Virus record (IMG/VR): IMGVR_UViG_2913112809_000004
Span: 1 to 47,442 of that record
Direction: 5' to 3' (one strand)
DNA from: a virus
Taxonomy: Duplodnaviria; Heunggongvirae; Uroviricota; Caudoviricetes
Length of the DNA: 47,442 nucleotides
Position numbers: made by a program. Shown here piece by piece: positions 30,001 to 31,738 of the stretch. Each line of letters starts with the position of its first letter. Position 1 is the stretch's first letter.

Positions 30001-31738
30001 TAAAAAACAACATCCCATCGAAGGAATCCGCAAATGCCTTTTGTGTGACATAGTCTGATATGAAAAGCGAAGAATTAATGTACGGGAATAAGGATTACCA
30101 GAAATTCAGATTAACTTTCCTGTTTAAACGAGAAAAATTAATTTATATACTTTTTGCACTTCCTGAACGGGGGGGAACGGAAATTCGTTATGTTTCACGG
30201 ACTTTGTCCAGCGACCTTAATCCGACGGTCGCGTTTTTTTTTCGTCATATTCATCGTTGACTTACATGGCATTGCCACACGGACATTATCAGTGTCCGTG
30301 TATTTTTTTGAATTCAACACAAAAAAAACCGCCTGGTGCGGCGGCTGAACAATGCTGAAGATGAATCATTTTTATTGTAGTGAAATTGAGATGTTGTGGA
30401 CTTCCCTGAATATCTGACTTTATGCCTGATATTGTGGTTCCAAAAACAACAATGTAAACCACCCTCAATACCGGGGAACATCTCTTTGGTGTTATTTACA
30501 ACACCGGAATGATGCATTTCCGACTCTCCAAAGAAACACAATATTTCTACCGAAAATACACCATTCCGCTATTGTAAAATAACAGCGCAAACCACTGACT
30601 AGCCAATTACAAATCGGTGTTCCTGTTTCCTGAGCAATGTTTACTCTTCATATGAGTTCTTGTCGGGGAATAAAACCACTCACCCGGAAGACAGACGTAT
30701 AATAACAAGGAATAAAATCACTTCAACTGTAATAATCTGAAAAATGATTCTTGCCACATGAAAACACCCACCAACCGTCCATTACCACAAATAAAAAAGC
30801 CTTCACCGCGTCGCGGTTTTCCATTTTCTTTACTTCTACAATAGCCTTACGGGTTTTCTTTTTGAAAATCCCAAACATCGTGAATTTTCCTTTTAGTGGG
30901 TGAGCCTCCGCCCGGGGTGACCAGTCCACAGAGAAAGTCACACTGATCATCCCGTAAGCTTACCCCTGAAAGGTTCTGTGGTTTTTGATCCGCGCCGGGC
31001 GTAGCGCAAAGAAATGAAATAAGCCTTATCTGAAATTAAGGTTAATCTGAGGATTTAAACCATTCTAAATGCTTAGTAGTATAAACATGCCTATTGAAAG
31101 AGGCAGATACTAATCCTTCTTCGCGGACCTTGTCCCGCGGCTTTAATCCGACAGCCGCGTTTTTTTTGCTTGTATATTTCCAAATGATGCAAATATAAAA
31201 GGCTCACCGAAGCGAACCTGATTCAAGCGTACTTGCTGCTACAGCAGGGCTATAATACCCCAACCACATAACGCCATGTGTTCTTTTCTAATGAGTTGGT
31301 GATGGTTTTATGCAAGCAAAAAAAACCGCCTGTTAAGGCGGTGGTCAAATCAGTAAGTGCTGAAGAGTATTATTATAATATAGGTGAGGTGTCGGGTGCC
31401 TCCCGAAATATCTGACATTCCATCAGATACTGTAGTTTCCCCGCTAAACAACCACTAAAACCACCCCCGCACATGGGGTTCACCTCATTTTGTGATGTTA
31501 ACAACATCGGGATAGTGCATAATCAGCCCCTGCCAGGAAATATCAAAAATCCCACTAATAATGCACTATCCCGATAGTGTCAAAAAACACAGCACTGAAA
31601 CTATAACTGGTCTCCGTTATAATTCGGGGGAGCGTTAAAGGAGTATACGAGACCTTTCCCCGCGAGAAAAAACGCCAGTGCTGAAAAACCTGTGCCTCAT
31701 TTGTTTTGCTGGAGCGGGTAGCGGGAATCGAACCCGCG

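Follow-up and report, generated by a model that had tools for sequence, protein, structure and literature searches.

The window analyzed here, by which we mean the whole 47,442-nt stretch of IMG/VR virus record IMGVR_UViG_2913112809_000004, is a lambdoid prophage with its late genes on the minus strand, and its plus strand carries, within the late region, two related units that resemble small-RNA genes. As far as sequence can tell, these units (A and B) belong to a family of prophage small-RNA genes that is new and was previously unannotated, while the kind of phage-borne regulator it represents is already known. The explanation that we favor, at a probability of roughly 0.6, is that each unit is a gene for a trans-acting small RNA of the chaperone type, in which a promoter and 3′ scaffold common to the family are joined to a 5′ domain that can be exchanged. 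An initial annotation had called the units small RNA-like, and this description agrees with their predicted makeup, in which a positionally kept promoter is followed by a 5′ stem-loop, linker, and second hairpin and, at the end, by a terminator that has a U-tail. The parts of the two units are located as follows (SL1 to SL3, stem-loops 1 to 3).

30085..30151, plus strand: conserved upstream block and promoter of unit A; −35 TTTAAA at 30123-30128, 17-nt spacer, −10 TATACT at 30146-30151 (promoter scan 9/12; family alignment)
30158..30242, plus strand: predicted small RNA of unit A, ~85 nt; class A 5′ domain with a G7 tract, then SL2, SL3, and T9
30199-30209, plus strand: SL2 of unit A, GGAC-TTT-GTCC, immediately 5′ of the terminator
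30211-30242, plus strand: terminator SL3 of unit A; GCGACC 30211-30216, loop TTAATCCGAC 30217-30226, GGTCGC 30227-30232, G, T9 30234-30242
30277..30308, plus strand: second hairpin and T-run 3′ of unit A; 11-pair stem, then ATTTTTTT (terminator scan), kept after the unit in loci L012 and L002
31012..31082, plus strand: conserved upstream block and promoter of unit B; −35 TTTAAA at 31054-31059, 17-nt spacer, −10 TAGTAT at 31077-31082 (alignment of 57 distinct units)
31087..31167, plus strand: predicted small RNA of unit B, ~80 nt; SL1 31089-31104, linker 31105-31124, SL2 31125-31135, SL3 31137-31158, T8 31160-31167
31125-31135, plus strand: SL2 of unit B, GGAC-CTT-GTCC, immediately 5′ of the terminator
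31137-31167, plus strand: terminator SL3 of unit B; GCGGCT 31137-31142, loop TTAATCCGAC 31143-31152, AGCCGC 31153-31158, G, T8 31160-31167

The two terminator hairpins, their common 10-nt loop, the two compensatory differences between their stems, and the T-runs were, to the base, where the initial annotation had placed them. At stem position 4, A-T in unit A corresponds to G-C in unit B, and at position 6, C-G corresponds to T-A, with pairing retained at both. As expected of intrinsic terminators, the stems have 6 to 7 pairs and are followed by T9 in A and T8 in B. A direct-repeat search found the two units as a 48-nt repeat of 85% identity, 926 nt apart, and RNA folding gave the two-hairpin form as both the minimum free energy and the centroid fold in A and B (z of about −2.2 to −2.6); the fold of the whole unit B RNA had a z of −1.9. 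The promoter proposed upstream of copy A, TTTAAA-17-TATACT, was recovered at 30123-30151 with 9/12 matches in the consensus scan, and its upstream block aligns with that of all family members, including the chromosomal copy discussed below. The predicted start of the unit A RNA follows from the position of this −10 element. The unit B promoter has 8/12 consensus matches, which is under the scan cutoff, and its position is kept across the family. A covariance model of the family (R1) scored 76.6 bits on unit A (30155-30244) and 90.9 bits on unit B (31086-31170), both of these sequences being part of its training set.

A few further features of the units were seen. The second hairpin 3′ of unit A is possibly a backup terminator that would yield a longer form of the RNA of ~150 nt. 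Among the few homologues of unit A, the G7 tract of its 5′ domain (30170-30176) varies in length and composition, being G6AGG in L003 and L004; the tract is a possible slippage-prone site. The sequence 3′ of the unit B terminator, GTTTTTTTTGCTTGTATA (31159-31176), is 94% complementary to 31309-31326, which lies before the facing late-strand terminator, so that the convergent terminators at unit B, with their common tail, make up an inverted repeat over a long range; unit A has a weaker repeat of this type (30233-30253 and 30309-30329). A coding function was rejected because the frame through unit A (MFHGLCPATLIRR...) meets a stop in unit B and the length of the T-run differs.

The unit is widespread. 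A pattern search that fixed only the small hairpin (SL2) and the loop found it in 116 IMG/VR stretches, the covariance model gave ~125 hits in IMG/VR loci, and blastn with a 141-nt unit B query found 291 complete Escherichia coli genomes with at least 80% coverage. The initial annotation had named absence from related prophages as a finding that would speak against it, and the covariance model hits show the opposite. With ~125 independent homologues in other prophages and ~290 complete E. coli genomes, the hairpin pair is more than a chance occurrence. The metagenome loci L006 to L008 of the first viral scan were discarded as chance matches with no model hit, and no copy of the unit was found in the late region of the K-12 prophage DLP12. 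Two GenBank records, KU052038 (phage SerU-LTIIb) and ON470595, contain the unit with no RNA annotation. In KU052038 (1272-2032 and 3178-3744) the tRNA-intergenic-holin arrangement is likewise duplicated, the full unit is followed by a partial, degenerate repeat of its 3′ domain (24.7 bits with the model, 1676-1741), and at its end the record has the unit's chromosomal copy, between a partial tRNA-Ser and yodB.

Alignment of 57 distinct sequences gave a common anatomy: an upstream block of ~75 nt ending in TTTAAA-17 nt-TAnnnT, then SL1, whose beginning approximately coincides with the start predicted for the RNA. An AU/CU-rich linker that is likewise conserved (AAUACUUAUUMUUCUUCAY) leads to SL2 (GGAC-UUU-GUCC), and SL3, in which the loop is UUAAUCCGAC, comes before the U-tract. 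The members fall into three classes that have the upstream block and 3′ domain in common, with the −35/−10 pair and its 17-nt spacer fixed in position in all three, and whose 5′ domains are unrelated. The main prophage class includes unit B, and the minimum free energy fold of a member consists of exactly SL1, SL2, and SL3 (z of −2.6). The class of unit A is rare, with only L003, L004, and L005 as other members, and unit A over its full length was found in none of 5,426 complete E. coli genomes. The third class is chromosomal. The 10-nt loop of SL3 starts with UUAA, a sequence of the type found in the rapid-recognition loops of antisense RNAs. The loop is not strictly invariant, since it reads UUAAUCUGAC in the chromosomal copy and UUAAUUCGAC in phage SerU-LTIIb.

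Further analysis of the alignment pointed to selection on RNA structure. Pairs were counted in 31 distinct sequences on a structure that we had specified; standard pairs filled 93.5% of the cells, and 8 of the 17 pairs had changes on both sides. For instance, three pairs of SL3 were G-C in 28 sequences and A-U in 3, C-G in 23 and U-A in 8, and C-G in 11, U-A in 7, and U-G in 3, respectively, and one pair of SL1 was U-A in 15 and C-G in 11. The covariation score was 0.245 compared to 0.159 ± 0.011 for shuffled alignments (0 of 500 reached it), a statistic that overstates independence because the sequences are related. More robust evidence comes from slid controls, in which the partners were moved by 1 to 3 columns and the score was at most 0.10, and from the distinct versions of the stem (GCGGUC/GACCGC, GCGGCU/AGCCGC, and GCGACC/GGUCGC). 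The covariation of SL1 and SL3 is not circular, as the search pattern left those stems free, whereas SL2 never varies and is therefore uninformative. Where a G atop the 5′ arm seemed unpaired, the variants adopt a shifted register in which the loop has 5 nt. The compensatory changes between A and B, which had been taken as a mark of selection on RNA structure, thus belong to a family-wide pattern that exceeded all of the shuffled and slid controls. Two asymmetries indicate that the structure under selection is that of the plus-strand RNA: G·U pairs read in the plus sense (19 to 25) outnumber A·C combinations (6 to 16), and the T-runs 3′ of the hairpins occur on the plus strand only.

A relative of the unit is present in nearly all E. 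coli. Blastn with the unit B query matched 5,406 of the 5,426 complete genomes, and among the matches listed, nearly all covered 44 to 46 nt of the 3′ domain at ~89% identity and lay at a chromosomal site. In the three strains in which the site was verified (K-12, O157:H7, and a uropathogenic strain), it was downstream of zinT/yodB and next to serU or a prophage integrated at serU. The homology of this paralogue with the prophage units comprises the promoter block and the 3′ domain only; the 5′ RNA domain and the flanks are excluded. The RNA region is also conserved at the locus, with 1 variable site in ~92 nt compared to ~20 in 285 nt downstream (11 sequences). A Term-seq study of MG1655 lists an "orphan" 3′ end at 2043181 on the plus strand, that is, one with no annotated gene or small RNA within 50 bp (Adams et al. 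2021, PMC7815308, supplementary file 1). Comparison with the sequence printed with that entry showed that 2043181 is the last T of the T-run of the paralogue. The homologous hairpin therefore marks an in vivo RNA 3′ end on the predicted strand, of an RNA that was then unannotated. A search of Rfam with the K-12 copy gave no match at E values up to 1, and no published name for an RNA between yodB and serU was found in the papers and supplements searched, those of the EPEC RIL-seq work among them, though one may exist. The contig scan is unreliable on spread beyond E. coli, as only two metagenome-bin contigs, L126 and L127, carried the E. coli chromosomal version. These are binned as Bacteroides and Bacillota, have the same model score as E. 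coli, and are probably misbinned E. coli DNA.

A trans-acting small RNA with a common scaffold would work as follows. A sigma-70-type promoter (TTTAAA, 17 nt, TAnnnT) would start plus-strand transcription at each unit. The transcript would contain, in the main class including unit B, a 5′ stem-loop (the 5′ domain of unit A is unrelated), then the AU/CU-rich linker and the GGAC/GUCC hairpin, and the G+C-rich terminator with the loop UUAAUCCGAC and a U8-9 tail would end it at ~80 to 90 nt. A U-rich linker, an internal hairpin, and a terminator with a long U-tail form the arrangement that binds Hfq, and the RNA would be expected to act in trans in the manner of small RNAs that depend on Hfq- or ProQ-type chaperones. 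The promoter and 3′ domain would then be the common scaffold and the 5′ domain a swappable part that sets the targets, which would make A and B two distinct regulators and not redundant copies. That nothing is encoded opposite the chromosomal paralogue argues against pairing with the late transcript as the essential function of such an RNA.

Several points weigh against this explanation, in addition to the relatedness of the sequences noted above for the shuffle statistics. First, the commonest prophage variant has a short and displaced U-tail (CUACUUUU), so its termination may be weak and its hairpin perhaps kept for another reason. Second, the promoter hexamers match the consensus at only 8 to 9 of 12 positions. 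Third, a pure scaffold model does not account for the near-invariant 10-nt loop. Fourth, a search of the prophage and the fetched loci for targets complementary to the linker or the loop returned only the antisense strand of the units themselves. Finally, the experimental support is confined to the RNA 3′ end at the K-12 paralogue, and because yodB ends ~280 nt upstream on the same strand, this end alone is no proof of a small-RNA promoter and could come from yodB read-through.

A more specific version, which we put forward tentatively and at well under even odds, is that the prophage units are seed-swapped paralogues of the chromosomal yodB-serU small RNA, a case of phage-host small-RNA mimicry beside a prophage attachment hot spot. 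As the promoter block and the 3′ scaffold are shared, the units would respond to the signals of the host RNA and compete for its chaperone or partner, and the differing 5′ domains would redirect regulation.

Both units are antisense to the late operon, as the initial annotation had stated, because the late genes are on the minus strand; the Q gene, tRNA-Thr and tRNA-Gly, the holin, a GH108 endolysin, and toxin genes of the type II heat-labile enterotoxin (LT-II) were all found there. The gene of this family thus occupies the stretch from the Q and tRNA genes to the lysis cassette, a recognized hot spot of small RNAs, and stands back-to-back with the first gene of that cassette. The features around the units are listed from the Q end.

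32185..32856, minus strand: Q-type antiterminator (DUF1133 / Phage_antitermQ; Pfam), which sets the direction of late transcription
31710..31863, minus strand: tRNA-Thr and tRNA-Gly (ARAGORN, Rfam), downstream of Q and on the upstream edge of the small-RNA island
31317..31512, minus strand: PasD/STnc100-like element near unit B and convergent with it; terminator 31342-31325, then T8 (Rfam RF02076, terminator scan, alignment with PasD2 of E2348/69)
30777..30878, minus strand: 5′ remnant of a TerB-family gene, ~34 codons, between the modules (tblastn with TerB of L001, residues 1-34, 67.5% identity)
30320..30500, minus strand: second, more diverged PasD/STnc100-like element, convergent with unit A; terminator 30346-30327, then T8 (alignments, terminator scan)
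29984..29999, minus strand: terminator-like hairpin separating unit A from the holin start codon (terminator scan), kept upstream of essD in L012
29571..29963, minus strand: holin (PF16931; Pfam E value 1.4e-22), first lysis gene, divergent from unit A

This position raises a different explanation, a cis-acting antisense RNA like oop of lambda, which would pair with the late transcript ahead of the lysis cassette or whose convergent transcription would hinder RNA polymerase arriving from Q. We regard this as unlikely, and equally so the role that would follow from it, in which the RNA damps leaky holin and lysis expression in the lysogen or times lysis after induction. The RNAs oop of lambda and sar of P22 are ~70 to 85 nt long, have their own constitutive-type promoter and intrinsic terminator, and run against a long phage operon; the unit, also short and opposite such an operon with a predicted promoter and terminator of its own, resembles what is generally known of oop in these respects. 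The unit is also always antisense to the late operon, ~190 to 215 nt from the first lysis-cassette gene, and the start of that gene is 228 to 262 nt from SL2 in nearly all cases, whichever gene it is (the first gene behind the promoter was a PF16931-type holin in 50 cases, EssD in 34, and TerB in 22). Moreover, late-strand terminator hairpins flank the unit, which would fit a block on polymerase not modified by Q. However, oop acts in cis via RNase III on its target, cII, with which it overlaps at the 3′ end of that gene, whereas no coding sequence or ribosome-binding site, including those of holin and TerB, is overlapped by the unit. Its predicted 5′ ends are ~190 to 215 nt from the nearest opposite-strand start codons; for unit A, the holin start codon is ~195 nt from the predicted RNA start. 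The paralogue, moreover, is kept in almost all E. coli with no late operon opposing it, and the near-fixed distance can also be explained by an intergenic region that is inherited as one module.

If the units made no functional RNA, they might be plus-strand insulator terminators that shield the Q/tRNA region from antisense or read-through transcripts and are kept through block inheritance of the intergenic module. Both hairpins are strong terminators (G+C stem, T8-9) paired convergently with late-strand terminators, and terminator-like sites are abundant in the region (17 found by the terminator scan compared to 3.6 expected). We nevertheless consider this very improbable, because an insulator needs no conserved promoter 60 to 80 nt upstream, covarying SL1, invariant small hairpin, or near-invariant loop, because many homologues with a weak U-tail retain the hairpin, and because the homology with the chromosomal copy is exactly the promoter and the 3′ domain. 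Least credible of all is a function of the structure in the late mRNA of the minus strand, where it might, for instance, serve in processing or stability upstream of the holin, with the plus-strand features incidental: the element is situated in the leader of the lysis cassette and its Watson-Crick stems fold equally on the minus strand (−15.1 and −17.7 kcal/mol), but the excess of plus-strand G·U pairs, the plus-only T-runs, the K-12 3′ end on the plus-equivalent strand, and a chromosomal copy with no late mRNA all speak against it.

The trans-acting small RNA that we favor has counterparts among known systems. The plus strand at units A and B matched no Rfam 15 family at the gathering threshold or at E values up to 10, and a search of 15 related loci likewise gave no family for the unit. 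PasA and PasC of enteropathogenic E. coli (EPEC) E2348/69 are 79 to 85 nt long and antisense to the late operon, with sizes confirmed by Northern blots and a stability that depends on Hfq; they are EcOnc51 and EcOnc52 in enterohemorrhagic E. coli (EHEC) (PMC8550237; bioRxiv 10.64898/2026.05.13.724894). PasA, which shares its prophage with PasD2, is 214 nt upstream of the holin; PasA variants have a common 3′ end and differ in the first ~40 nt (same sources). The unit is similar in several respects. It is ~80 to 85 nt long, has an intrinsic terminator, is antisense to the late operon just upstream of the holin (~200 nt), comes in variants that are alike at the 3′ end and differ at the 5′ end, and is accompanied, on the late strand, by a PasD/STnc100-type RNA and by a hairpin between the small RNA and the holin. 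However, the terminator stems (GCCAGCAC or GCCAGCG) and loops of PasA and PasC are unlike those of the unit, and PasA has been validated by Northern blotting and RIL-seq (sequencing of interacting RNAs after their ligation), whereas the unit is known from its sequence. Neither at the PasA locus (L009 3916-4000, minus strand) nor at that of PasC did the family covariance model find a match with an E value below 7, and blastn at word size 7 between the unit and PasA/PasC gave only chance matches. Membership was therefore rejected even though the genomic slot matches. The unit is a positional analogue of PasA/PasC and probably a functional one too.

PasD/STnc100 (RF02076) is a neighbor and not the unit. 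A convergent late-strand relative of it, of ~170 to 190 nt and unrelated in sequence to the unit, lies by each unit on the opposite strand, which echoes the reported co-occurrence of PasA and PasD. The element near unit B scored 34.5 bits with RF02076 (E value of 3e-5), short of the gathering score of 47. AgvB and AsxR of EHEC are prophage-encoded, Hfq-binding anti-sRNAs from lambdoid late regions (PMC4104026). The unit has in common with them (RF02702 and RF02703) a predicted small RNA of the late region of a lambdoid prophage and differs in having no Rfam match at any threshold tried. A type I toxin-antitoxin RNA of the Sok kind was also rejected, as the strand opposite the units has no conserved reading frame and the hok/sok locus of the window is elsewhere, at 34455-34632.

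Small RNAs that prophages encode between Q and the lysis genes (AgvB, AsxR, and PasA to PasD) are a recognized but thinly cataloged group, to which the family adds one with no annotation or Rfam model. Its modular design is clear, with a fixed promoter and 3′ domain and an interchangeable 5′ domain; it is borne by toxin-converting (LT-II) and many other lambdoid prophages, and its near-universal E. coli relative is present in K-12, where the tools for testing it exist. If the trans-acting model is true, the family would be a tractable case of phages copying and retargeting a host regulator, and it would name the RNA behind an unexplained 3′ end in published K-12 data.

The two-copy state itself looks like recombination. 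The initial annotation had described two diverged copies with related upstream sequence. Two related units are indeed present and the upstream relatedness stands, but the repeat is larger than was noted, with ~450 nt duplicated with divergence, including the small-RNA-like opposite-strand element with its own terminator, and the 5′ domains are unrelated. Other prophages have one module, and what comes after it is an intact TerB (L001 and L002), essD (L012), or the holin type of the window; the window has a TerB 5′ remnant between its two modules, which suggests recombination between two late regions. That A and B have unrelated 5′ domains and that the module types differ favor this over local duplication and drift. 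From the sequence comparison, then, the A/B pair looks like the product of such an exchange, and the TerB remnant, whose start is 246 nt from SL2 of unit B and near which homology with TerB-bearing prophages starts (~30800), is probably its scar. Three IMG/VR prophage contigs (L003, L005, and L004 with L021) show this two-copy arrangement again, and tRNA genes as in the window (Thr/Gly) flank the unit in other loci as well.

Other observations concern the surrounding region. Type II heat-labile enterotoxin genes directly follow the lysis genes (27411-28557, minus strand); the A subunit matches PF01375 (E value of 3e-119) and has a KDEL end, and the B-subunit-like reading frame is 126 amino acids long. 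These genes identify the window as a lambdoid prophage of the LT-II-converting sort, with phage SerU-LTIIb as a relative. Imperfect but very stable palindromes of ~90 nt at 31495-31586 and 30492-30581 (−40.2 and −38.7 kcal/mol; z of −7.7 and −8.8, respectively) each just precede a PasD/STnc100-like element in the late-strand sense; their sequences differ, the long stem is kept in both, and they gave spurious microRNA matches in the Rfam E-value search. A sok antitoxin RNA at 34455-34632 (minus strand; 97.4 bits in Rfam) places a hok/sok-type toxin-antitoxin locus upstream of Q. Finally, a strong hairpin at 32097-32121, ~65 nt past the Q stop codon and coinciding with a subthreshold STnc370 match on the plus strand, has A-run and T-run flanks with which it could terminate both ways, and it may be the terminator of a short late-promoter transcript.

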